Source of the DNA: Candidatus Rifleibacteriota bacterium
Lineage (GTDB): Bacteria > Muiribacteriota > Ozemobacteria > Ozemobacterales > Ozemobacteraceae
Reading direction: 5' to 3'
Assembly: GCA_012517355.1 (NCBI GenBank)
Contig: JAAYVD010000110.1
Location: forward strand, 1-64,000
Length of the DNA stretch: 64,000 nt
Every line of letters starts with the position of its first letter. Positions within the stretch are counted from its first letter, which is position 1. Below the pieces are notes generated by a model. That model saw nothing but the letters and a program-made list of their open reading frames with translations, did not search any database and was not told where the DNA came from. The translations under genes and the position numbers were made by a program. Below are positions 10,491-46,206 of the stretch, piece after piece.

Positions 10491-12845
10491 CTAGGCCGGG
10501 GGCGGGTCGCGGGGGAGGGCCTTGAGATTCTGCAGGGCGCGGCGGGCCTCCTGGAACAGGCGGGTGCGCTCTTTGGTGATGAGCATCTTCACGTCGACGG
10601 GCGAAAGGGCGATCCGCTTGCCGAAGGCGGTCAGCAGGGTCATCTCGTCGTCGCTGAGCCGCCCGTCGGCCAGGGCCATGGCCGCCATCTCCCGCAGCAT
10701 CTCCCGTGCCTCCTCGGGCGACTCCGGAACGGGGAGGGAGTCGAAGCGGCGACCACTTTCGCGCAACGCGACGATGGTTTCGCGGACCTTCGCCTCGGGA
10801 ATGCCGTTCCGCTCGCCGAACTCGCCCAGGCGGACCATCTCCCGGTCGTCGATGACGCCGTCGGCCAGCATGGTGGCCACCAGCCACTCCAGCAGCTGCA
10901 GCGGGGCGCGGACCCGGGAGACGGCGGTCCCGGTCGGGGCGGCCGCGCCAGGGCCGGCCGGCGAGTCGGGGCCTGGTGACACGGGGCCAGAGGACCCGGG
11001 GCCCGGCCGGTCGTGGGCGCCGGTCGTGGCCGCCACCGGGACCGGGCTGCCGCCCGCCGCCGGGGCGGGGGCCGGGCCGAAGCTTCCACCGGCCACGGGG
11101 GTCATGGCCTTGGCTCTGGATTGGTCGAGGTCGCGGGCCTGCCGGATGGCGGCCATGACCTCGCTGTCGGTGGCCGACAGCAGTTTCTCGAGCGTCCAGT
11201 CGCGGGAACCGTCGTTGAGCACGGTGTCGCAGTAGGGGCAGACGAACTCCTGGCCGGTCTGTTCGGGGGCCCCGCAGTTGGGACAGTGGGAGCTGTCGAG
11301 GCTGGCCTTGACCTCGGTGGTGACGCCGTGCCGGCGCACGAGCACGAACGCGGAGCGAAGGCGGCGCGGTCCTTTCCCGGCCTGGACGACCCGGCCGTCG
11401 GCCTGGCGTTCCTGCAGCCGGCCGCTCCAGGCGACCTCGACGAACACGCGGTCGAACGGGTCGCCGGGCAGGACCGCTTTGACGACGACCGCTCCGACGG
11501 CGCAGCGCGTGTAGAAGGACCGGGTGCCGTCCTCGCCGGGTTTGAGCCGGAAAGTCAGCCCTTCCATGAAGCGGTCGAGGGCGAACTTCCTCATGGGGGC
11601 GGGGTCGCCGGTCCGCTCGGCCAGGGCGTGCCGCCAGAAGATGACGGCGGCCCGGTCTTCGAGGTGCTGGACGTTGAACCCCGGGTCGGCCCGCTGGAAC
11701 GTCTTCATGCCGGGGATGGCGGCGGGGTCGGTGGCGGTCCATTCACAGGCCTGGGTGATGTCCGCCAGGACCCAGTCGTGCTCGCCGGACCGGAGGTAGG
11801 AGTTGCAGACGGGGCAGATGGCCACCCGCACGATCTCGATGGGGGCGCTGCAGTTGGGGCAGAACCCCTCCAGCAGGCCCGGTTTGGCCAGGGTCCGGGC
11901 GCCGGGCCGGCGCAGGAAGGACCAGACCTCCTCGAACACCTCGGGGGTGGTGGGCCCTTCCACCCATTTGCCGGTCCGGGCCGCGACCCGGTAGTTGGTG
12001 GCGGATGCCCGGATGGAGACGTGGACGGTGTCGAACCCGGGGTCGCTCTCCACCTGCCGCAGGGTGGTGTCGAGCACCTTCAGTTCCTCGAGGTGATCAC
12101 GCAGGCCAGCCTCGGCCAGTTCGCGGAGCAGGATCTGGAACCGGTCGTAGACGCCGTCCGAGAGGAACGCCTGGGCCTTGGCGAGGTCGGCCCGCGACCA
12201 GCCCTCCTGGATGGCGGTGAAGGCCTGGCGGACGCGGGTGAGGAACCGGGCCTGGTTCCAGGCGGGGTCGCGCTCGCGCAGCCGCCGCTCGGCGTTCGCC
12301 CGCTCGAGGGTCCCCTGCGCCTGGGTGCCCCGGCGGATGGTGTAGTCGACGTAGCGTTCCTTCCCCTCGTTGGCGGAATAGACGATGATGGCGATGACGA
12401 GGATCAGGAGCGGGATTCCCACCAGGGGCTGCTCGATGCTCAGTTCGATGAGCCGGAGGAGCAGGTAGATGGCGTCGCCGTCGAGCCCCCCGCCTCCGCC
12501 TCCCCCGCCACCGCTGTCGGACGGGCCGGGGAACCCTTCCCCGCCCCCGGCGCGGGCCAGCAGGGTTGGTGCGACCAGCACCGTCAGGAGCAGGGAAGCC
12601 GCGACCGGGACGACCCACCAGGCGGTGGAGTGGCGGCACGGGCGGTGGTCCCGAGCGGTGGCATCCGACCCCCAGCCCGGAAAGGCGGTCGTGTGCCGCC
12701 GTTCCCGCAGCGGGGCCGGGCCTCGGGTGGCGGCCTCCGGGAGGATCTGAGGGGAGGGGCGGTCACCGGGGAAGCCTGGGGAGGAGGCGGCCGGTCTGGC
12801 GGGTTCTGGCGTGGGGCGCCGATCCTGGACGGGAGAAGGCTTCAT
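10491..12845 (-). CDS. membrane protein with tandem Tim44-like domains, CxxC zinc ribbons and a C-terminal TerB-like domain
   Basis: 784 aa. Has a Gly9 run, two Tim44-like segments each followed by CPNC/CPxC pairs, and a C-terminal LADGVIDDREM...LADGRLSDDEM TerB-like repeat. Confidence 0.6.
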   Translation of the reverse strand: MKPSPVQDRRPTPEPARPAASSPGFPGDRPSPQILPEAATRGPAPLRERRHTTAFPGWGSDATARDHRPCRHSTAWWVVPVAASLLLTVLVAPTLLARAGGGEGFPGPSDSGGGGGGGGGLDGDAIYLLLRLIELSIEQPLVGIPLLILVIAIIVYSANEGKERYVDYTIRRGTQAQGTLERANAERRLRERDPAWNQARFLTRVRQAFTAIQEGWSRADLAKAQAFLSDGVYDRFQILLRELAEAGLRDHLEELKVLDTTLRQVESDPGFDTVHVSIRASATNYRVAARTGKWVEGPTTPEVFEEVWSFLRRPGARTLAKPGLLEGFCPNCSAPIEIVRVAICPVCNSYLRSGEHDWVLADITQACEWTATDPAAIPGMKTFQRADPGFNVQHLEDRAAVIFWRHALAERTGDPAPMRKFALDRFMEGLTFRLKPGEDGTRSFYTRCAVGAVVVKAVLPGDPFDRVFVEVAWSGRLQERQADGRVVQAGKGPRRLRSAFVLVRRHGVTTEVKASLDSSHCPNCGAPEQTGQEFVCPYCDTVLNDGSRDWTLEKLLSATDSEVMAAIRQARDLDQSRAKAMTPVAGGSFGPAPAPAAGGSPVPVAATTGAHDRPGPGSSGPVSPGPDSPAGPGAAAPTGTAVSRVRAPLQLLEWLVATMLADGVIDDREMVRLGEFGERNGIPEAKVRETIVALRESGRRFDSLPVPESPEEAREMLREMAAMALADGRLSDDEMTLLTAFGKRIALSPVDVKMLITKERTRLFQEARRALQNLKALPRDPPPA

Positions 12846-12855
12846 GCCGGGGCGG

Positions 12856-14823
12856 CTACCGGTTGGTGGCCGGGATCCTGGCCGTGGCGGCCTGCCCGGC
12901 CTCGATCACCTGGTTCCAGAAGGCCTGGTAATCCTCCCAGCCGTTCGCGGCGGCGTGCGCGGCCGCCCGTTTCGCCTCGTCCAGCAGGGCGGCGAGGGCC
13001 GGGGCGAGGTTGGTCAGGGCGGGGTGGGCGGCGAGGGTGGCGGCCGGCGGCGGGGCCTGCCCGGCCAGGAAGCGGACGTCATCGCGCAGGATCTGGCGGG
13101 TCTGGTTGTCGGTGCGGAACACTCCCTGCCAGTCAACCACCTGGGCGGCGTGGAACAGCCATTCCTGCTCGGGGGACAGGCCGCGTGCGGCCAGGACGCG
13201 GAAGGCGTTCAGGCGGGCGGTGGTGGAGGCGGGGTCGGCCATCGCCCGGGTGAGCCATGCTTCGAGGCGCGGGAAGAAGGCCCCGGCCGCCAGCCTCATC
13301 GCCGGCGAGTCGGTGGCCAGGAGGGTGCGTTCGAGCAAGGGGAAGCGGTCGAGGGCGGGGGGAAGCGAGGCTGGGTCGCTGGCGGTGGCGAAGAAGCCGA
13401 TGGCTTCCTGCAGAAGGGGCGAGTCTTCCGACCCGGGGGAGGAGAGGACCTCGGCCTGGTAGACGGCCGCCGCATCGACCGGCCGGCCGGCCAGCGGCAG
13501 GAGGCGGAGGGCGTTCCAGCGAAGGGCGCGGTTGGCCTCGTCGGTCGTCGCCAGGGCCTGCTCCAGGAGGGGGCCAAACCGGGCCAGGCAGTGGCTGGCG
13601 ATGAAGGCGCGGGGCTCGTCCATTCCATCATCGGGGGGGTAGTTCCGCAGGAAGTAGTCCATCGTTTCGACGAACCCGGGGTCGGCGGTGAAACTGGCGG
13701 GCTCGAAGGCGGCGCGGGCGTGCATGAACAGGACGCTCTTGGGGCCGTTGATGCCCGTGCGGTGGTAGAACCGGGCGATGCGCTCGATGGTGGAGGGCCG
13801 GGTCTTCTGCTCCTCGGCCAGGCGATCCAGCAGTTCCTCGGCCTGGCGCTTGCCGGCGAAGCCTTCCTCGGCGAGGGTCTGGGCCTCGGCCAGGGTGACC
13901 TCGGCCTCGAGGTCGGGCAGGGGCCCGAGGGAGCCGAACCGGGTGCGGTAGTCGTCGAGGAGTTCCCGGGCGGCCGAGGCCTGGTGGCGGTCGAGCGACT
14001 GGCGGACGGCCATTTCGAGGCTGCGATTGAGCAGCTCGAGCCCCTGGGCGTGGTTGGGGGAGTCGGCCAGGAGCTGCGAGACGGCGGTGAGGGCCCGGCG
14101 GGGTTCGCCGGTGTTGAGGGCGCGGTTGGCCTCGAGGAGCTGGGGCGGGATGGAAGCCTTCCAGGTCCAGAGGATGGCCAGGCAGGTGGCCAGGGCGAGG
14201 GCGGTGACCAGGATGACCACCGGCAGGGGAAGAGTGGGCGCGGGGGCGGGGGCGTTCAGGCTCATCTTCTGCTGCTGGCTGGCCAGGGCTTTCTGGAACT
14301 GCTCGGAATCGAGGTCCTGGACGACCCGGTAGATCTTCAGGGCCTCGGGGACCCCCTTCAGTCGGAACTCCCCGACCAGGCTGGTGGGGACCTCCTGCTT
14401 GTTCATGGCCAGGTAGGTGGCCTCGGTGAACCAGATCTCGTTGCCCTCGGTGATGTGCTCGACGCGCGAGGCGATGTTCACCGCCTCGCCCAGCACGTCG
14501 CCGTCGGTGAGGGAGACCTCGCCGGTGTTGATGGCGACGCGGATCTCGATCCGTTCCTCGACGGGAGCGGTGCGGTTGTAGTCGCGGAGGCGATCCTGCA
14601 TCATCAGGGAGCACAGGACGGCGTTGGTCGGGCTGTCGAAGGTGAGCAGGAAGGCGTCGCCGATGGTCTTGACCAGGGTCCCCTCGTAGCGGGCGATGAT
14701 CGGCCGCAGCAGGGCGTCGTGCTTTTCCCGCAGCTTGACCGCGAAATCGCGGCCTCCCTGCGAGGTGCGCTCGGTGAACCCCTTGATGTCGGTGAAGACG
14801 ACGCTCAGCAGTCGTGACGGCAT
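12856..14823 (-). CDS. class III adenylate/guanylate cyclase with a TM segment and C-terminal helical-repeat region
   Basis: Start at MPSRLLSVVFTDIKGFTERTS (ATG 14821-14823, GGAGAGAG ribosome-binding site). The cyclase-homology domain has a FTDIKGFT metal-binding motif. A 10-bp gap separates it from the downstream Tim44/TerB gene. Confidence 0.75.
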   Translation of the reverse strand: MPSRLLSVVFTDIKGFTERTSQGGRDFAVKLREKHDALLRPIIARYEGTLVKTIGDAFLLTFDSPTNAVLCSLMMQDRLRDYNRTAPVEERIEIRVAINTGEVSLTDGDVLGEAVNIASRVEHITEGNEIWFTEATYLAMNKQEVPTSLVGEFRLKGVPEALKIYRVVQDLDSEQFQKALASQQQKMSLNAPAPAPTLPLPVVILVTALALATCLAILWTWKASIPPQLLEANRALNTGEPRRALTAVSQLLADSPNHAQGLELLNRSLEMAVRQSLDRHQASAARELLDDYRTRFGSLGPLPDLEAEVTLAEAQTLAEEGFAGKRQAEELLDRLAEEQKTRPSTIERIARFYHRTGINGPKSVLFMHARAAFEPASFTADPGFVETMDYFLRNYPPDDGMDEPRAFIASHCLARFGPLLEQALATTDEANRALRWNALRLLPLAGRPVDAAAVYQAEVLSSPGSEDSPLLQEAIGFFATASDPASLPPALDRFPLLERTLLATDSPAMRLAAGAFFPRLEAWLTRAMADPASTTARLNAFRVLAARGLSPEQEWLFHAAQVVDWQGVFRTDNQTRQILRDDVRFLAGQAPPPAATLAAHPALTNLAPALAALLDEAKRAAAHAAANGWEDYQAFWNQVIEAGQAATARIPATNR

Positions 14824-14898: not shown

Positions 14899-15052
14899 GC
14901 GAACGAAACCCTTGGAAACCCTGTCAGAGCGGACGGAGTTCCGCTCCTCCCGACCACCCCGCCAGGGGCCATCGGCCCCTGGACCCCTTTTTTCTGCCTG
15001 CCGAACGCGGAGCGTTCGGCAGGCGGGCCGCCCGCTTCGCGAGCCGACCAGG
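14899..15052. repeat. repeat family B (~150 bp structured element), copy 1
   Basis: Contains hairpins CCAGGGGCCATCGGCCCCTGG, GCCGAACGCGGAGCGTTCGGC and GGAGCGGA..TCCGCTCC. An inverted copy lies at 60437-60578. Confidence 0.6.
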
Positions 15053-15146: not shown

Positions 15147-16121
15147 TCAGCGCAGGGGAGGTAGAAGGGTGTCGGACCAGGCCAGGCCGAACCGGGCGTA
15201 GAAGGCGGCGATGACCGCCGGTCGGCGGGCGACGGTTCCCCGGCAGAAGACGGTGACGATCCGCTGAGACGCGCCCGTGCGGCCGAACCCGGCGAACCAG
15301 ACGGCGCCGTCGTGGGTGCCCGTCTTGCCGAACAGGGCAACGGCGGGGTCGGGGCTGGGCCAGCGCAAGGCCTCGACGAGGGTGTCCCGCACCCCGGCGG
15401 GGTCGGGCAGGCGGCCGGTGGCCAGGCGTTCGAGGAAGGCCTGCTGCTGGCGGGGGGTGATCCGGAGCCTCCCGCCCTTGACGACGGGGGTCCAGTCCCT
15501 GCCCAGCCAGCCGGCCAGGGCATGGGTGGTGGCGTAGCCGCTGCGGCTGAGAAACTCCTCGATGGCCGGGCGGCCCGCCCGGGGAGCGGTCTCTTGGAAG
15601 AACGCGTTGCTGGAATAGAGCAGCGCCTGGTGCAGGTCGAGGGCGAAGGTGCCGGTGCCCAGGTAGGGGTCGTGGCAAGCGAGGCGCGTCGAGGAAGCGA
15701 CCACGCCGTGCTCGAGGGCCACCCAGGCGAGGGCGATCTTGAAAGTGGAGGCGGGGCAGAAGGGCCGGTCGGCGAGGGCGGGGTTGCCGGCGACCACCCG
15801 GGCGGGCTCCCCGTCAGAGCTTTCGAGGATGACGAAATCGGCGGTGGGAAGAGCGGCGGCCTTCTTGCCCGGCGCGGGACCGGAGTTTTGCGCCGCCATT
15901 CCTGGCGGCAAGGAAGCGCTGCCGACCTCTTGTCGGCCGGCTCGAGGCCTGGAGACCGCTCCTTCCGTCGATGAGGGGGCTTTCCTGCCCCGACCTCCGG
16001 CCTCCTGCCGGTCGGGCTCCGGTGGGGGGGCGGCCCTGGCCAAGCCGGGAACGGTGGTCAGGAACAGGACGAGGGACAGGAGGGCAAGGGCGGCGGGGCG
16101 TGGATGGTGGGCGGGGTTCAC
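15147..16121 (-). CDS. penicillin-binding/beta-lactamase-fold protein (class D or BlaR-sensor-like transpeptidase fold)
   Basis: Motifs STFK (S-x-x-K), SSN and KTG are present. GTG start at 16121 (VNPAHHPRPAALALLSLVLFL, signal-peptide-like) lies directly after the pqiB stop. Alternative start MAAQNSG at about 15898. Confidence 0.6.
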   Translation of the reverse strand: MNPAHHPRPAALALLSLVLFLTTVPGLARAAPPPEPDRQEAGGRGRKAPSSTEGAVSRPRAGRQEVGSASLPPGMAAQNSGPAPGKKAAALPTADFVILESSDGEPARVVAGNPALADRPFCPASTFKIALAWVALEHGVVASSTRLACHDPYLGTGTFALDLHQALLYSSNAFFQETAPRAGRPAIEEFLSRSGYATTHALAGWLGRDWTPVVKGGRLRITPRQQQAFLERLATGRLPDPAGVRDTLVEALRWPSPDPAVALFGKTGTHDGAVWFAGFGRTGASQRIVTVFCRGTVARRPAVIAAFYARFGLAWSDTLLPPLR

Positions 16122-17581
16122 GGCAGTTTCTCCGGCAACAGGACGACGCGGGCGGGGCGGCCGGCCTCCAGGTGGAGCAGGCCGAGCACCTTCCCGTCGG
16201 CCAGGGCGAGGACGGCCGCCCCGTGCCAGGCGGGTGGCAGGCCCAGGGCGGGGTCGACCAGCCAGGAACCGTCGGGGGCCGCTGTCAGACGCGATGCCTG
16301 CAGAGGGAGGGGCGGGGTCTGCGGGTCGCCCACGGCACAGGCGTCTTCGGGGGCGGTGGGATGCCGCCGGCGTCCGTCCGGCCAGGCCGTGGGCAGGGTG
16401 CCGGCCGCCGGGTCGGTCAATCGCAGGAAGGGGACGGCCTCGCCTGATGGGGCCGGGGCGATCCGCCAGGTCCGGCCCAGGCCCTGGATCGGCAGGGGCG
16501 AGCCGTTGCCCGCATCGACGGCGAGGTCGGCGGGGCACAGGAGACCGCCGGCGAGGGGCAGCGCCCAGGCGCGGCGGACGTGCTGCTCGGTCCACAGGCC
16601 CGCCAGCCGGGACTCGGTCCAACTGGTCTGCACCCGCACCAGTTCCGGCAGCGGGGTGCCGGGAGGCAGCAGGCGGTCGCCCAGCCACAGGGCGGGCTTC
16701 CAGGCGAGCCATTCGGGTTCGGGCCTGGCGTGCAGGGGGAACCGGTGGCCCGGCTTCACCTCCGACCCGGCCGGGTCGGGCGTGGCCAGGCAGATGCCGC
16801 CGGCCAGCACGGTCTGCAGGGATTCCATGTCGAGGGTCAGGCCCCGCAGGAGGCCGAGATCGAAGGCGAGGCCACTGGCGTTCCAGAACCGGGAGTTGTC
16901 CCGGACGAGGCCGGCGAACCGGGGCTCGACCAGCACCCGGACGTCGACCCCCACGGCATCGGGGGCGAGGCCGACGGCGAGCACCGCGCCGACCTGGCAC
17001 TGCCGGAACAGGATGGGGGCCCCGGGCCGCAGGCTGCCGCGGGAGCCGGCCTGCAGGGTGATCTCCAGGCCACCGGGCGGGGCCTCGGCGGGCGGGGCCT
17101 CCTCTTGGCCGATGAACTCCGTCCGGGGCGGCCCTTCCCCGGGAAGGACTCCGATGTAGCGCGGCCCGATCAGGGTGTCCAGTCCTTGCACCCCGTACAG
17201 GCCCGCCTGGGGGTGGACGATCCAGAAGGCCGATCCCTGGGCGGTCAGGCCCCGGTAGGCGTTCTCGATCTGCAGACGGAGGTCGACCCCGCGCAGGTCT
17301 GGGGACAATCGCACCTCGCCCACCCGTCCCACGTCGATGCCCCGGAACTTGACGGCGTCACCCGTCTTGATGCCGTGGCCGGCGCGGAACTGGACACGCA
17401 CGGTCAGGGGTTTCCGCCCCAGGGAGGCGATGCCCAGGCCGGCCACCAGGAAGAGGGCGGCCACGGGCAGCACCCACAGCCGTGTCGAGGGCAGATCGCG
17501 CAGAAGGGTGGCCCGGGGAAAAGGGGGGGTGGAGGTTCCGGCCGCTTCGGGGGCGGTTCCGCCGGAGGGTGATTCAGTCAT
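16118..17581 (-). CDS. pqiB: MCE-domain protein (PqiB/MlaD family)
   Basis: N-terminal TM helix followed by repeated MCE-like segments (VRVQFRAGHGIKTGDAVKFRGIDVGRV...). Overlaps pqiA by 8 nt. Confidence 0.7.
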   Translation of the reverse strand: MTESPSGGTAPEAAGTSTPPFPRATLLRDLPSTRLWVLPVAALFLVAGLGIASLGRKPLTVRVQFRAGHGIKTGDAVKFRGIDVGRVGEVRLSPDLRGVDLRLQIENAYRGLTAQGSAFWIVHPQAGLYGVQGLDTLIGPRYIGVLPGEGPPRTEFIGQEEAPPAEAPPGGLEITLQAGSRGSLRPGAPILFRQCQVGAVLAVGLAPDAVGVDVRVLVEPRFAGLVRDNSRFWNASGLAFDLGLLRGLTLDMESLQTVLAGGICLATPDPAGSEVKPGHRFPLHARPEPEWLAWKPALWLGDRLLPPGTPLPELVRVQTSWTESRLAGLWTEQHVRRAWALPLAGGLLCPADLAVDAGNGSPLPIQGLGRTWRIAPAPSGEAVPFLRLTDPAAGTLPTAWPDGRRRHPTAPEDACAVGDPQTPPLPLQASRLTAAPDGSWLVDPALGLPPAWHGAAVLALADGKVLGLLHLEAGRPARVVLLPEKLP

Positions 17582-18227
17582 GGGCGGCCTCGTTCCAGAT
17601 GGAGTGCGGGTCGTAGCAGGCGGAGGCGGTCAGGCTGAGGGCCACGCACAGGGTGAAGAGAGCCGCCCCTTCCCCCGGCTTGACCTCGAGGAGGTTGCCC
17701 AGTTTGACCGCCGCCACCAGGACGGCGACGAGGAGGACGTCGAGCATCCCCCACCGGCCGACCAGTTCGATGAACCGGAAGGACCCTGCCCGGAACTTCG
17801 GGGAGAGGGGCAGGAACCGCCCCGAGATCAGCAGCAGCCCCGCCAGCTTGGCCAGGGGAAAGACGAACGAGCAGAAGAAGACGATGGCAGCCAGCACCAG
17901 GTGGCCGTCCGCCCACAGCTCCACGCAACCGCGCAGGATGCCGGTCTCGTGGACATGGCCGAACCGCTCCAGGTGCAAAACCGGGAGCCAGACGGCCAGG
18001 GGGAACAGGATGAGGGCGGCCAGGGCGCAGGCCGCGGTGCGAGCGCGCCGCCGGCGGTCCTCGCCGGGCGGGGGAAAGGGGGTGGCGCAGCGGACGCAGG
18101 CCCAAAGAGCGGGGGTGGCCCCCGAACCCGAACCTTCCGCCTGGCGGGCGGAAGGGACGAACTGGATGAGGCCGCAGCAGGGGCAGGCGCGCAGCCCTTC
18201 GGCCGGCGGGCCTCCCGCCGGGGTCAT
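17574..18227 (-). CDS. pqiA: PqiA-family integral membrane protein (paraquat-inducible protein A-like)
   Basis: CPCCG...CVRC zinc-ribbon-like N-terminus followed by TM helices. 4-nt overlap with the upstream outer-membrane gene. Confidence 0.65.
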   Translation of the reverse strand: MTPAGGPPAEGLRACPCCGLIQFVPSARQAEGSGSGATPALWACVRCATPFPPPGEDRRRRARTAACALAALILFPLAVWLPVLHLERFGHVHETGILRGCVELWADGHLVLAAIVFFCSFVFPLAKLAGLLLISGRFLPLSPKFRAGSFRFIELVGRWGMLDVLLVAVLVAAVKLGNLLEVKPGEGAALFTLCVALSLTASACYDPHSIWNEAAHD

Positions 18228-19684
18228 TTGAAGAAGGCCGTGACGCCGAAGACCATCCGGTAGTTGTAGCCGTAGCGCTGGTCGTTGGTGACGGCGATGG
18301 GCACGCCGACCTCGAAGGCGAAGTTCTCGGTAGGGGTGTAGCGCAGGCCGGGTGTGACGTCGATGCGCAGCCCTTCGGCGCCCCAGTCCTGGCCGTTGAC
18401 CTCGGTCATGACGGTGACGTTGTGGTTGTGGGGATACTCGATGCCAATGTTGTAGTAGAAGATGTCGGCCAGCCCATCGGGGTAGAACTGGGTGTTGGGG
18501 TCGCCGGTCATGATGTAGCCGAGGTTCAGGTGGGCGATGATGCGCTCGAAGTTCTTGCTGAAGGCGGTGAACACCTCGAAGTCGGTCTTGCCGGTGCCCA
18601 GGCCCTTCTGATCGGAGCCGGTGGGGAACTTGAAGCCGAGCCCGAAGGCCCCGCGCATCTGGTACTGGGGGTTGTCGAACACGCGGTACTTGAAGGCCAG
18701 CTTGCAGTCGCCGGTGCCGGACTCGCGGAAGTCCTTGCTCCAGAGGATGCGGGACTTGACCGTGTAATTGAGGATCGGCAGGCTGAAGGCGAACTCCAGG
18801 TCGTTGGTGACGGCGTAGTTGAAGAAGAGCGGGATCTCGAGCAGATCGCCGCTTTCCCCGCTGGCCAGGACCCGGTCATAGACGCGGTCGAGGGCGAACC
18901 ACGAGGTGTGGAACCCGCACTTGAACGAGCCTTCCCGGCTGATGTCGGCCGAGGTGGTGTTCATCAGGCCGGTCAGTCCCATGAAGTTGGCGGCCAGCAC
19001 CCGCGACACCGCCTCGCCCAGGGGGGCGGTCATCATGGCGTCACGCGTGATGGGGGGAAGGGTCGTGCGCGAGGGTTCGGGGAGGCTCGACACCGGGGGA
19101 AGCTGCAGGGGGTCCTGGGAGTAGATCTCCTGACCGGAGCCGTACACCGGTGCGGCGCCGTAAGGGGGCGGGAAGGATGGCAGCGCGGGGGGATAATCGC
19201 CGCTGGAAACGATCGGGGCCGAGGATCTCTTCTTCGTCGGGGATTTCTTGCTGGATTTCGTCGAGCCGCTGTTCTTCTTCGGTTTGGGGTTGACGGTGGC
19301 GGCCGCGACGGGGGCTTCGGCGGGGGCGATCGCCGGGAGGGAGGGGGCGTCCCCGCCGGTTGCGGGAACGGGGGGAAGATCCGGCGCGGCGGCCGTGTCA
19401 GGGGGCCGGGGGATGGGCTGCAGGGTGGGGTCGGACCCCGAATCCCCCGCGGGGGGAGGCGGGAAGGAGGGGAGGGCGTCCTGCTGGGCGGCGATGGAGG
19501 GGGCGTCCGACAGCACCCGGTAGGCTTCCCCGGTCCTCTGGGTGGCGCGGGCGATGAACGTGCTGCTGAACCCCGAGCTGCGCAGTTGCGACTGGGTGCC
19601 GGACTGCAGGTAGTCCCGCGTCCAGCCGGTGGTCAGGAACACCGAGCAGGCGGCGAGTCCGAGGAGGATGGTCTTCTTGTTCAT
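18224..19684 (-). CDS. outer-membrane beta-barrel protein with a Pro-rich N-terminal region
   Basis: Signal peptide MNKKTILLGLAACSVFL. About 230 aa of Pro/Ala-rich low complexity, then alternating beta-strand pattern ending in a C-terminal ...VTAFFK (terminal Phe/Lys). Confidence 0.6.
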   Translation of the reverse strand: MNKKTILLGLAACSVFLTTGWTRDYLQSGTQSQLRSSGFSSTFIARATQRTGEAYRVLSDAPSIAAQQDALPSFPPPPAGDSGSDPTLQPIPRPPDTAAAPDLPPVPATGGDAPSLPAIAPAEAPVAAATVNPKPKKNSGSTKSSKKSPTKKRSSAPIVSSGDYPPALPSFPPPYGAAPVYGSGQEIYSQDPLQLPPVSSLPEPSRTTLPPITRDAMMTAPLGEAVSRVLAANFMGLTGLMNTTSADISREGSFKCGFHTSWFALDRVYDRVLASGESGDLLEIPLFFNYAVTNDLEFAFSLPILNYTVKSRILWSKDFRESGTGDCKLAFKYRVFDNPQYQMRGAFGLGFKFPTGSDQKGLGTGKTDFEVFTAFSKNFERIIAHLNLGYIMTGDPNTQFYPDGLADIFYYNIGIEYPHNHNVTVMTEVNGQDWGAEGLRIDVTPGLRYTPTENFAFEVGVPIAVTNDQRYGYNYRMVFGVTAFFK

Positions 19685-20324
19685 GCCTGGCTCCTTCGCG
19701 TAGGCCTATCCCTCACGGCGTGTGCTGCCTGACGGTCGGAAAATTTCGATCTCCGGCCGAACGACGGCAGCACGGCAGGTCCTGGATGGCCAGAACGTCA
19801 TTCATGCGGACCTCATCGGCAGGACCTGCAGGTTTGCTTAGGATGCCGGGAAAAAAAGAACGTGGATTCACCACTGAGAAAACGTGAGGAAGGAAACAAA
19901 AAGGGCAGAAGAAAAGCTCCCGTCTGTTCCAGGGCTGACGGACAGGGAACCGAAGCTTCCGCGAGGTGAACGCGTCAGGGTTCCCCTCGCCAGCAGAAAG
20001 AGTCCAGGGCCATCGGCCCTGGTGGGGTGAAGGGGCAAAGCCCCTTCGGAAAGCCTTCGTGCAGATCATCGAAGAAACAAAGCATCACCGAGGAAATCGA
20101 GGAACGTCAGGAGGCAAGGGAAGAGAGTGAGGAGAGGTTACCAGGCGGAGGGAAGGGAGGGTGGGCAAACGAAGGTGAGGGGAGGTGAAGGACAGGGCGA
20201 GGAGGCGAGGAAGGGGATAACGCCCTGGAGGGTCATGGGAGCAGGCCGGTGGACAAGAGGTGGAAAGGGAACCGGGGGGCCCTGGCGGGCCCCCCGGTGG
20301 AAAACGGATTTCTGGAACCGGCGG

Positions 20325-44850: not shown

Positions 44851-46206
44851 ATGGTTGTGTCGAAGGTCAATCCTTATGTGACTGAGGTCATCGAGCGGGT
44901 CGAGAAGCGGTATCCCTGGGAGAAGGAATTCAACCAGGCGGTCCGCGAGGTTCTCACCTCTTTGTCGCCCGTTCTCGACAAGAACCCCATCTACAAGCAG
45001 AAGCGGATCCTCGAGCGTCTTGTCGAGCCCGAGCGGGTCTACCAGTTCCGCGTTCCCTGGAAGGACGACAAGGGCAACATCCAGGTCAACACCGGCTACC
45101 GCATCGGCTTCAACAGCGCCATCGGCCCCTACAAGGGCGGCCTGCGCTTCCACGCCTCGGTCAACCTCAGCATCCTGAAGTTCCTGGGCTTCGAGCAGAT
45201 CTTCAAGAACTCCCTGACCAGCCTCCCCATGGGCGGCGGCAAGGGCGGCAGCGACTTCAGCCCGGTGGGCAAGTCCGACAACGAGATCGAGAACTTCTGC
45301 CAGAGCTTCATGACCGCCCTCTACCGCCAGATCGGCGCCAACACCGACGTCCCCGCCGGTGACATCGGCGTCGGCGGCCGGGAGATCGGCTTCCTGTTCG
45401 GGCAGTACCGCCGCATCACCAACCTGTTCGACGGCGTCCTGACCGGCAAGGGCCTCAAGTGGGGCGGCTCGCTGGTGCGGCCCGAGGCGACCGGCTACGG
45501 CGCCACCTACTTCTGCGAAGAGATGCTCAAGACCCGTGGCCAGAGCATCGCCGGCAAGACGGTCGCCGTCTCCGGGTTCGGCAACGTGGCCTGGGGCGTC
45601 TGCAAGAAGGTCGGCGAGCTGGGCGGCAAGGTCGTCACCCTCTCCGGTCCCGACGGTTGCATCTACGACAAGGACGGCATCAAGGGCGAGAAGATCGACT
45701 ACATGCTGCAGATGCGCTCGAGCGGCCGCGACCGCGTGCAGGACTACGCCGACAAGTTCAAGGTCGAGTTCCACGCCGGCAAGCGCCCCTGGGGCATCAA
45801 GGTCGACCTGGCCTTCCCCTGCGCGACCCAGAACGAGATGAGCCTCGAGGACGCCAAGACCCTGCTGAAGAACGGCTGCATCGCGGTGACCGAGGGCGCC
45901 AACATGCCCGTCGAGCCCCAGGCGATCGAGCTGTTCCTCGAGAACAAGATCCTCTACTCGCCCGGCAAGGCCTCCAACGCCGGCGGCGTCGCCTGCTCCG
46001 GCCTCGAGATGAGCCAGAACAGCATCCGCATGAACTGGTCGGCGGAAGAGGTCGACAAGCACCTCCACCAGATCATGATCAACATCCACAAGGCCTGCCT
46101 GGATGCTGCGGCCCAGTACAGCACCCCCGGCAACTACCAGGACGGCGCCAACATTGCCGGCTTCCTGAAGGTCGCCGACGCGATGATCGACCAGGGCAAC
46201 ATCTAA
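44851..46206 (+). CDS. gdhA: NADP-specific glutamate dehydrogenase
   Basis: Strong similarity in pattern to GdhA along its length (FRVPWKDDKGNIQVNTGYR, GPYKGGLRFH, LPMGGGKGGSDF, GVGGREIGF). Alternative starts are ATG at 44824 and GTG at 44857; an AAGGAGGA ribosome-binding site lies at 44843-44850. Confidence 0.9.
   Translation: MVVSKVNPYVTEVIERVEKRYPWEKEFNQAVREVLTSLSPVLDKNPIYKQKRILERLVEPERVYQFRVPWKDDKGNIQVNTGYRIGFNSAIGPYKGGLRFHASVNLSILKFLGFEQIFKNSLTSLPMGGGKGGSDFSPVGKSDNEIENFCQSFMTALYRQIGANTDVPAGDIGVGGREIGFLFGQYRRITNLFDGVLTGKGLKWGGSLVRPEATGYGATYFCEEMLKTRGQSIAGKTVAVSGFGNVAWGVCKKVGELGGKVVTLSGPDGCIYDKDGIKGEKIDYMLQMRSSGRDRVQDYADKFKVEFHAGKRPWGIKVDLAFPCATQNEMSLEDAKTLLKNGCIAVTEGANMPVEPQAIELFLENKILYSPGKASNAGGVACSGLEMSQNSIRMNWSAEEVDKHLHQIMINIHKACLDAAAQYSTPGNYQDGANIAGFLKVADAMIDQGNI

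Follow-up and report, generated by a model that had tools for sequence, protein, structure and literature searches.

The minus strand of the 64-kb window analysed here, the whole stretch of DNA under study from a Candidatus Riflebacteria metagenome-assembled genome (MAG), carries four consecutive open reading frames (ORFs) between positions 15147 and 19684. Read 5' to 3', they encode an outer-membrane beta-barrel protein, a single-module PqiA/LetA-like protein, an MCE protein and a secreted protein with the fold of class D beta-lactamases (hereafter the bla-like protein). The block is probably a LetAB/PqiAB-type transporter to which a periplasmic SxxK accessory enzyme was appended in one clade, and this enzyme is probably not a substitute for PqiC. 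All the parts come from known superfamilies and every gene can be annotated. What is new is the combination, together with two variant forms: an S-S-N branch of the class D/BlaR fold without a characterised member, and a two-MCE pseudo-protease family accompanied by a single-module PqiA. To our knowledge, MCE systems are the least understood lipid route across the Gram-negative envelope, and nearly all the mechanistic work that we know of concerns three Escherichia coli systems. The locus presents a compact, non-proteobacterial MCE design and widens the known architectures by a one-module LetA-like protein, a putative two-ring, capped MCE protein and a COG4313-like barrel in Riflebacteria. A non-exhaustive literature search found no paper on the S-S-N branch and none on a two-MCE family with a trypsin-fold pseudo-protease domain, and it returned only unrelated papers for PqiA/PqiB together with beta-lactamase. 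The literature on MCE architecture that was examined mentions neither a protease-like domain nor PqiC.

The four ORFs lie exactly where the initial annotation had placed them, and its description of four overlapping genes that end in a protein with STFK, SSN and KTG motifs is borne out. The outer-membrane beta-barrel gene (18224..19684, 486 aa) matches PF13557 (Phenol_MetA_deg, 24.3 bits against a cut-off of 22), the PqiA/LetA-family inner-membrane gene (17574..18227, 217 aa) matches PF04403 (PqiA, E=4e-41), the MCE gene (16118..17581, 487 aa) matches PF02470 (MlaD) in two stretches (E=2e-23), and the bla-like gene (15147..16121, 324 aa) matches PF00905 (E=2.4e-11) and bla_class_D_main (E=6e-16). 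Stop and start codons overlap at 3/3 junctions, as ATGA between the barrel and PqiA genes, ATGACTGA between the PqiA and MCE genes and GTGA between the MCE and bla-like genes. A GC-rich palindromic hairpin, CCAGGGCCGATGGCCCTGG, lies on the minus strand at 20004..20022, ~320 nt upstream of the barrel start, and the near-identical CCAGGGGCCGATGGCCCCTGG lies at 14962..14982, ~165 nt past the bla-like stop codon. Given the overlapping junctions and the bracketing hairpins, the four genes look like one translationally coupled unit. To judge from the sequence, the unit is probably tight and co-translated, and it is presumably transcribed as an operon; a sigma-70 promoter scan found no promoter.

The bla-like protein between class D enzymes and BlaR1

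The most plausible start of the bla-like gene is GTG 16121, which follows a GGAG and shares the sequence GTGA with the stop codon of the MCE gene, and the NCBI product NLI77662.1 (Candidatus Riflebacteria bacterium) has the identical length of 324 aa. Two other starts were rejected: the long ORF opens with a GTG at 17000, a start that falls within the MCE gene and in a different frame, and the ATG at 15899, chosen by one gene caller (P0001), drops the conserved signal peptide. From GTG 16121 the N-terminus reads MNPAHHPRPAALALLSLVLFLTTVPGLARA/AP, a Sec signal peptide (aa 1-30, nt 16032-16121) that ends in LARA/AP and has no lipobox cysteine. A disordered linker (aa 31 to ~92) leads into the catalytic domain (~aa 93-324), which adopts the class D beta-lactamase fold and holds the motifs STFK (aa 125-128, nt 15738-15749), SSN (aa 170-172, nt 15606-15614) and KTG (aa 266-268, nt 15318-15326), all encoded on the minus strand. 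Pfam and NCBIfam searches with the 324-aa protein reveal no further domain, only the signal peptide and the linker before the catalytic domain. Such a protein would be soluble and periplasmic.

The SxxK/SxN/KTG triad, which the initial annotation had recognised by motif, aligns on proper domain and fold searches. A phmmer search against PDB sequences retrieves only class D beta-lactamases, of which the best is the Nostoc 'YbxI' (6nhs, E=2e-12), and in this alignment STFK and KTG are in register with the catalytic motifs of solved class D enzymes. In an AlphaFold model based on 57 relatives, the predicted local distance difference test (pLDDT) score is above 95 from about residue 93 to the end and low in the signal helix and the ~60-residue linker. 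Foldseek matches the domain to BPU-1, OXA-58, OXA-24, BSU-2 and others (E ~1e-14, target-normalised TM-score 0.75-0.81), and identity to solved class D enzymes is ~19-26%. The residues S125, K128, S170, N172, K266 and G268 are invariant in the 57 relatives, which argues that the site is under selection and probably competent for acylation. The class D fold of the protein is secure; its membership of the class D family is not.

Ser-x-Val and Tyr-Gly-Asn are hallmark motifs of class D enzymes, and the Val of S-x-V belongs to the hydrophobic setting of the carboxylated lysine. BlaR1 and the penicillin-binding proteins (PBPs) carry Asn at that position and form long-lived acyl-enzymes. The bla-like protein resembles class D (OXA) enzymes in its fold (target-normalised TM-score ~0.8), in having S-T-F-K, K-T-G and W-F-x-G in the same places, in being secreted and in the similar size of its domain. 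It differs from them in carrying S-S-N where they have S-x-V and S-G-Y where they have Y-G-N, and in an extra conserved C-terminal segment, TVFCRG..RRPAVI..FY.RFGL. It scores 58.4 bits on bla_class_D_main (NF012161) against a cut-off of 250, three other members of the subfamily score 49-53 bits on the same model, and on blaR1_generic it reaches 26.8 bits against a cut-off of 400, aligned to positions 387-546 only.

How large is the S-S-N group? A word-indexed protein search gave only four relatives of the bla-like protein, and more came from an exhaustive profile search of 1.84 billion representatives. In the latter, 49 representative clusters of ~245-330 aa match over their full length at E<1e-30; beyond these the scores fall to ordinary class D proteins, at ~1e-17 or weaker and with partial profile matches. 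The subfamily thus defined comprises ~50-60 clusters at 50% identity. When the 150 matches listed were aligned, the close group showed S-S-N-[D/E/A] and S-G-[L/F/Y/W], the rest S-x-V-[W/P] and x-G-Y, and the long BlaR1-type proteins among them S-x-N-W. Two proteins that pass curated cut-offs serve as references: P0130 (285 bits on the class D model) carries S-V-V-W and x-G-Y, and P0194 (708 bits on the BlaR1 model) carries S-V-N-W. Public names of the relatives are 'hypothetical protein', 'beta-lactamase class D' (JGI) and 'penicillin-binding transpeptidase domain-containing protein' (NCBI).

It is possible that the protein is simply a divergent ordinary class D beta-lactamase that confers intrinsic beta-lactam resistance and is merely co-transcribed with the MCE genes. 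The best sequence and fold matches are indeed class D enzymes, with OXA-58, BPU-1 and BSU-2 among the Foldseek hits, the catalytic Ser, Lys and KTG are invariant, relatives bear the JGI class D label, and most of them stand alone in their genomes. Nevertheless, this explanation is rather unlikely: the score lies far below the curated class D cut-off, both S-x-V and Y-G-N have been replaced, the tryptophan that class D enzymes have at the aligned position is conserved in only part of the subfamily, and NCBI names the relatives only as penicillin-binding transpeptidase domain-containing proteins.

The initial annotation had also considered a BlaR-type sensor and had proposed a phylogeny of the domain as a check. 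In a neighbour-joining tree, which is unbootstrapped and only indicative, the S-S-N subfamily is placed nearer the BlaR1-like sensor domains than canonical class D enzymes. The sensor domains of BlaR1/MecR1 share with the bla-like protein the class D-like fold and the S-x-N motif (SSN here, SVN in the verified BlaR1 P0194). They differ in that the bla-like protein is free, without an N-terminal membrane/M56 zinc-protease transducer, and in the residue after S-x-N, which is D, E or A in the subfamily and W in BlaR1. With neither a transmembrane nor a metalloprotease transducer, identity as a BlaR1-type sensor was rejected.

The protein would most likely act as a soluble periplasmic acyl-serine enzyme, in which Ser125 is the putative nucleophile activated by Lys128. 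SSN and KTG would form the pocket lining for the substrates, either beta-lactams or peptides resembling D-Ala-D-Ala. With Asn in place of the class D Val, as in PBPs and BlaR1, slow turnover is to be expected. By this analogy the protein may be acylated well and turn over slowly, as a penicillin-binding or DD-peptidase-like protein would, and not act as an efficient oxacillinase; this is the weakest step of the proposal. Lys128 is possibly carboxylated, as is the lysine of class D enzymes and BlaR sensors, in which a hydrophobic active site favours carboxylation (PMC6723624).

The S-S-N branch is fairly large, comes from environmental bacteria and is uncharacterised. Its chemistry, be it hydrolysis, binding or action on cell-wall peptides, bears on the origin of class D enzymes and BlaR from PBPs and on the labelling of resistomes.

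Linkage to PqiA-MCE pairs and the place of PqiC

In the initial annotation, a gene unlinked from pqiAB elsewhere was to count against the proposal, and linkage was examined from both sides. Candidatus Ozemobacter sibiricus (locus L001) has the barrel (518 aa), PqiA, MCE and bla-like genes in the same order. Its flanks match too: pseudopilin-like genes lie upstream, and downstream come a cyclase gene and one resembling Tim44/TerB. As the whole region is syntenic, this instance alone says little on linkage. The same four-gene order occurs in an unclassified MAG (L013/L022), with MCE and bla-like proteins 48% and 42% identical to those of the window. There a 9-nt gap precedes the bla-like gene, and the next gene is a different one, encoding a 374-aa protein with no Pfam annotation and the look of a membrane protein. 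L005/L015 (84% identical) preserve a partial MCE-bla junction on a short contig. Apart from the window, only Ozemobacter sibiricus and the L013/L022 lineage show the full order. The next-closest loci, L010-12 and L065 (MCE 59% identical), have the barrel, PqiA and MCE genes followed by a gene on the opposite strand, and no bla-like gene. Five more distant full-length MCE relatives, one of them from a Planctomycetota MAG, have the PqiA-MCE pair only, among unrelated neighbours, and a metagenome scan seeded on the MCE protein yielded ~30 further PqiA-MCE loci, none with the bla-like gene. Among the PqiA-MCE loci with at least 1.2 kb of sequence downstream of the MCE gene, the bla-like gene is present in 6/31 and missing from 25/31. 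The six carriers (Ozemobacter sibiricus four times, L013/L022 twice) amount to two lineages besides the window.

The converse search started from the bla-like protein. An alignment of 12 bla-like sequences, scanned on one genome per species, gave 50 loci, and more than 40 of these have no PqiA or MCE ORF within 8 kb. The unlinked loci are labelled mostly Verrucomicrobiota/Methylacidiphilales, and also 'Blastochloridaceae' and Lysobacterales; matches from Lysobacterales and other Pseudomonadota are the most distant and fall outside the S-S-N clade in the tree. The neighbours of the unlinked loci include, by Pfam, genes for photolyase, aspartokinase, SDR and inositol monophosphatase and, by reading of the sequence, SerA-like and PurB-like genes; conserved neighbours in Verrucomicrobiota comprise only unrelated housekeeping genes and give no functional hint. 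Linkage is confined to one clade, and in nearly all other settings the subfamily is unlinked to PqiA-MCE. In the neighbour-joining tree the PqiA-MCE-linked bla-like proteins form one clade beside the stand-alone genes of Verrucomicrobiota, which fits a single recruitment into the operon.

The bla-like genes of four loci labelled Blastochloris/Blastochloridaceae (L025, L026, L029 and L035) nest among those of Verrucomicrobiota and Methylacidiphilales, which suggests mis-binning or mislabelled taxonomy. L029 also has a photolyase-type upstream neighbour, as in the Verrucomicrobiota-labelled loci.

PqiC of the E. coli system is an outer-membrane lipoprotein (PMC10897342). The initial annotation had the bla-like protein take its place as third envelope component and tie the MCE system to an activity that senses or remodels peptidoglycan or senses beta-lactams. 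One form of such coupling would be a local trimming of peptidoglycan that lets the tunnel cross the wall. Several observations are in keeping with such a role. The overlapping codons make the bla-like gene the last cistron of the operon, and the four-gene order is kept in three lineages though the gene after it differs. SSN is a PBP-type motif, and there is weak similarity to the transpeptidase region of PBP2 (TIGR03423, E=6e-6). Moreover, a PqiC-family Pfam annotation is absent from the four operon proteins, to which the scan of the window for PqiC was confined. However, PqiC annotation is equally missing among the called genes of the related PqiA-MCE loci with Pfam annotation, whether or not they have the bla-like gene, and therefore nothing was 'replaced'. 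In addition, the bla-like protein cannot serve as an anchor in the outer membrane, as its signal peptide is cleavable and a lipobox is missing. On these grounds the bla-like protein was rejected as a PqiC analogue. The closest lineage without the bla-like gene keeps the outer-membrane barrel, the subfamily is overwhelmingly unlinked to MCE genes, and the protein has neither membrane anchor nor sensing transducer domain. The wider role as third component in the place of PqiC is thus improbable, and the proposed coupling of the MCE system to beta-lactam sensing is not supported.

The preferred reading is that one clade of Riflebacteria gained the bla-like gene at the 3' end of its operon, as a co-expressed accessory that would serve envelope maintenance, and that its product would not be an obligatory structural subunit of the MCE machine. 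The sole argument for functional coupling to that machine is operon membership in one narrow clade.

Why, then, has the gene stayed so tightly attached? Several points weigh against a loosely associated accessory. The coupling persists, as a GTGA overlap in the window and a 9-nt gap in L013, though the MCE proteins are only 48% identical, and the four-gene block persists while the gene after it changes. Together, this is more than accidental adjacency, and the bla-like protein may have a direct functional or physical link to the MCE machine. The distribution was read from many short metagenomic contigs and a thin sampling of Riflebacteria, the tree carries no bootstrap support, and the expected slow deacylation of the enzyme is drawn from analogy with BlaR1 and PBPs. 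A stronger version of such a link, in which the bla-like protein is a true MCE accessory subunit, a dedicated peptidoglycan DD-peptidase docking on the pseudo-protease cap or on the linker of the barrel protein, is a very unlikely arrangement. If true, the enzyme would open the wall, or patrol it, at the point where the short two-ring tunnel reaches the outer-membrane barrel. It would then be a wall-remodelling enzyme dedicated to a bridge for lipid transport, much as secretion systems have specialised lytic enzymes of their own.

The probable transporter core and its putative outer-membrane barrel

The core would be a LetAB/PqiAB-type transporter for lipids or other hydrophobic molecules. Here the labels given by the initial annotation stand in part: the MCE and PqiA families are confirmed (PF02470, PF04403), 'PqiB' is a loose label for a protein with two MCE domains and no C-terminal helix, and the 'PqiA' is half-size. 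As in E. coli LetAB and PqiABC, a PqiA/LetA-family gene directly precedes a multi-MCE gene with an N-terminal transmembrane helix, and the zinc ribbon and the GRW(S/G)M-psi-D motif are shared. The differences are one LetA module instead of two, two MCE domains instead of three (PqiB) or seven (LetB), the lack of a PqiC lipoprotein in the operon, and a beta-barrel gene upstream.

The PqiA-like protein corresponds to one LetA module, in which CPCC (aa 15) and CVRC (aa 44) make up a zinc ribbon and which also has a four-helix membrane domain and, at aa 157, the motif GRWGMLDVL. It aligns only with the second half of PqiA models (220-410 of 421). The LetA module has been defined with a GRWSM-psi-D-psi-F motif, and published systems have either a fusion of two modules or a pair of neighbouring genes with one module each (PMC13017536). 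The 64-kb window holds no other PqiA ORF, and with a single LetA-module gene the inner-membrane protein presumably works as a homodimer. Among relatives, the PqiA ORFs (~150-264 aa as called) are mostly single as well; two adjacent ones occur in L089, L091 and L092.

The MCE protein divides into two parts. The N-terminal part (nt 16712..17581, minus strand) comprises a cytoplasmic tail, a transmembrane helix at residues 34-55 of the structure model and two MCE domains at ~aa 56-290. This succession, together with a paired permease gene (PqiA) that overlaps the MCE start, places the protein in the MCE superfamily. The PqiB model NF008070 gives 156 bits against a cut-off of 525, aligned over positions 11-266 of 542. 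The two MCE domains are related to one another (hhalign 98.6%), and the last ~190 residues are related to neither (hhalign below 3%). By analogy with LetAB, a hexamer with two stacked MCE rings would presumably be formed.

The C-terminal domain (~aa 300-487 plus the stop codon, nt 16118..16684, minus strand) has no Pfam match. It is kept in 18 homologues with the signature W-H-G-A-x-V...D-G-x-L-I-G, is confidently modelled, and has a PA-clan double beta-barrel fold of the trypsin/3C/HtrA type. A profile of the domain, searched against PDB sequences, gives a weak match to the TEV-like hydrolase 9n7y (E=0.03), and in this weak alignment the near-invariant His453 falls at the nucleophile position. 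No conserved His or Asp is seen at the other two triad positions in the 18-sequence alignment. That the domain lacks a canonical catalytic triad is moderately secure from the sequences, and an active protease was rejected, the position aligned with the nucleophile being His. The domain can be read as a pseudo-protease cap where PqiB has its C-terminal coiled-coil needle, so that the putative hexamer would consist of two stacked rings capped by trypsin-fold domains.

The outer-membrane protein begins with a signal sequence or possible lipobox (LGLAAC), continues with a Pro/Ser/Lys-rich linker of ~200 aa and ends in a predicted barrel of the COG4313/Phenol_MetA_deg type. The PF13557 match covers residues 295-475 and is marginal, at 24.3 bits against a gathering score of 22; the barrel finds no match among PDB sequences. 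By eye, the alignment with Ozemobacter, L011/L065 and L022 shows a highly conserved barrel, far better preserved between lineages than the MCE (48-59% identical) or bla-like (42-60%) proteins. Cys13 and the LGLAAC segment near the N-terminus are kept across the aligned lineages, and from this sequence the protein could be a lipidated, tethered beta-barrel. It resembles the COG4313/PF13557 channels (Pput2725, SphA, TcpY) over its C-terminal ~260 aa, which match PF13557 just above the gathering score, and differs from them in the ~200-aa N-terminal low-complexity extension and the possible lipobox, both atypical of the family. COG4313 proteins form channels in the outer membrane that have been linked to the uptake of hydrophobic molecules, and they are annotated as meta-pathway of phenol degradation, a name shared with PF13557 (PMC4493636). 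This role makes the barrel a sensible partner for an MCE tunnel, and it presumably acts as the outer-membrane partner of the transporter; with its long flexible linker it would probably provide the entry or exit at the outer membrane. Within Riflebacteria-type loci, the beta-barrel and not the bla-like protein is the steadier third partner.

Since the operon may also encode a path for taking up hydrophobic molecules, another explanation for the bla-like protein is an SxxK esterase or amidase that processes a lipid or other hydrophobic cargo entering through the COG4313-like channel and the MCE tunnel. SxxK-fold esterases exist in other beta-lactamase classes, but we know of no esterase with a class D fold. 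The motif set is moreover the penicillin-recognising one, and most members of the subfamily have no transporter neighbours, which leaves a cargo-processing enzyme barely plausible.

Boundaries and neighbouring genes

The two palindromes that flank the four-gene block, at 20004-20022 and 14962-14982, share the consensus CCAGGG(G)CCGATGG(C)CCCTGG. The pattern recurs more weakly at 45115-45129, and at the stringency used 3/100 shuffles contain as many matches. The palindromes could be terminators or a REP-like (repetitive extragenic palindrome) repeat of the genome. The upstream hairpin is likely to be terminator-like for the pseudopilin genes before it and to set the 5' limit of the transcription unit, and the downstream hairpin is likely to mark the 3' limit of the four-gene unit. 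The latter falls inside the ~320-nt gap between the bla-like gene and the following cyclase gene, and its T-run is present on the plus strand only, the operon being on the minus strand.

Beyond this gap, a gene at 12856 to ~14826 (minus strand) encodes a class III adenylate/guanylate cyclase with an N-terminal catalytic domain, one transmembrane helix and a large C-terminal helical domain that is probably periplasmic. The cyclase gene follows the bla-like gene in the window, in Ozemobacter (L001) and in L006, and does not in L013/L022. A signalling link between the cyclase and the periplasmic bla-like protein is conceivable. Next, at 10491-12845 (minus strand), lies a gene that is syntenic with the cyclase gene. 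Its 784-aa product has an N-terminus rich in Gly, CxxC pairs that resemble a zinc ribbon and a C-terminus similar to TerB; in Ozemobacter the counterpart is faintly annotated as Tim44/TerB.

Upstream of the block, the minus strand between 20325 and 24528 holds a run of pseudopilin-like genes with prepilin-type N-termini (GLTLVEVMIV, FSLLEILVAV), together with a gene for a 703-aa protein. The run may be a module for type II secretion or for type IV pili next to the MCE operon. In Ozemobacter sibiricus the same set lies upstream of the barrel gene, and one of its genes has a weak ComGC_C match.

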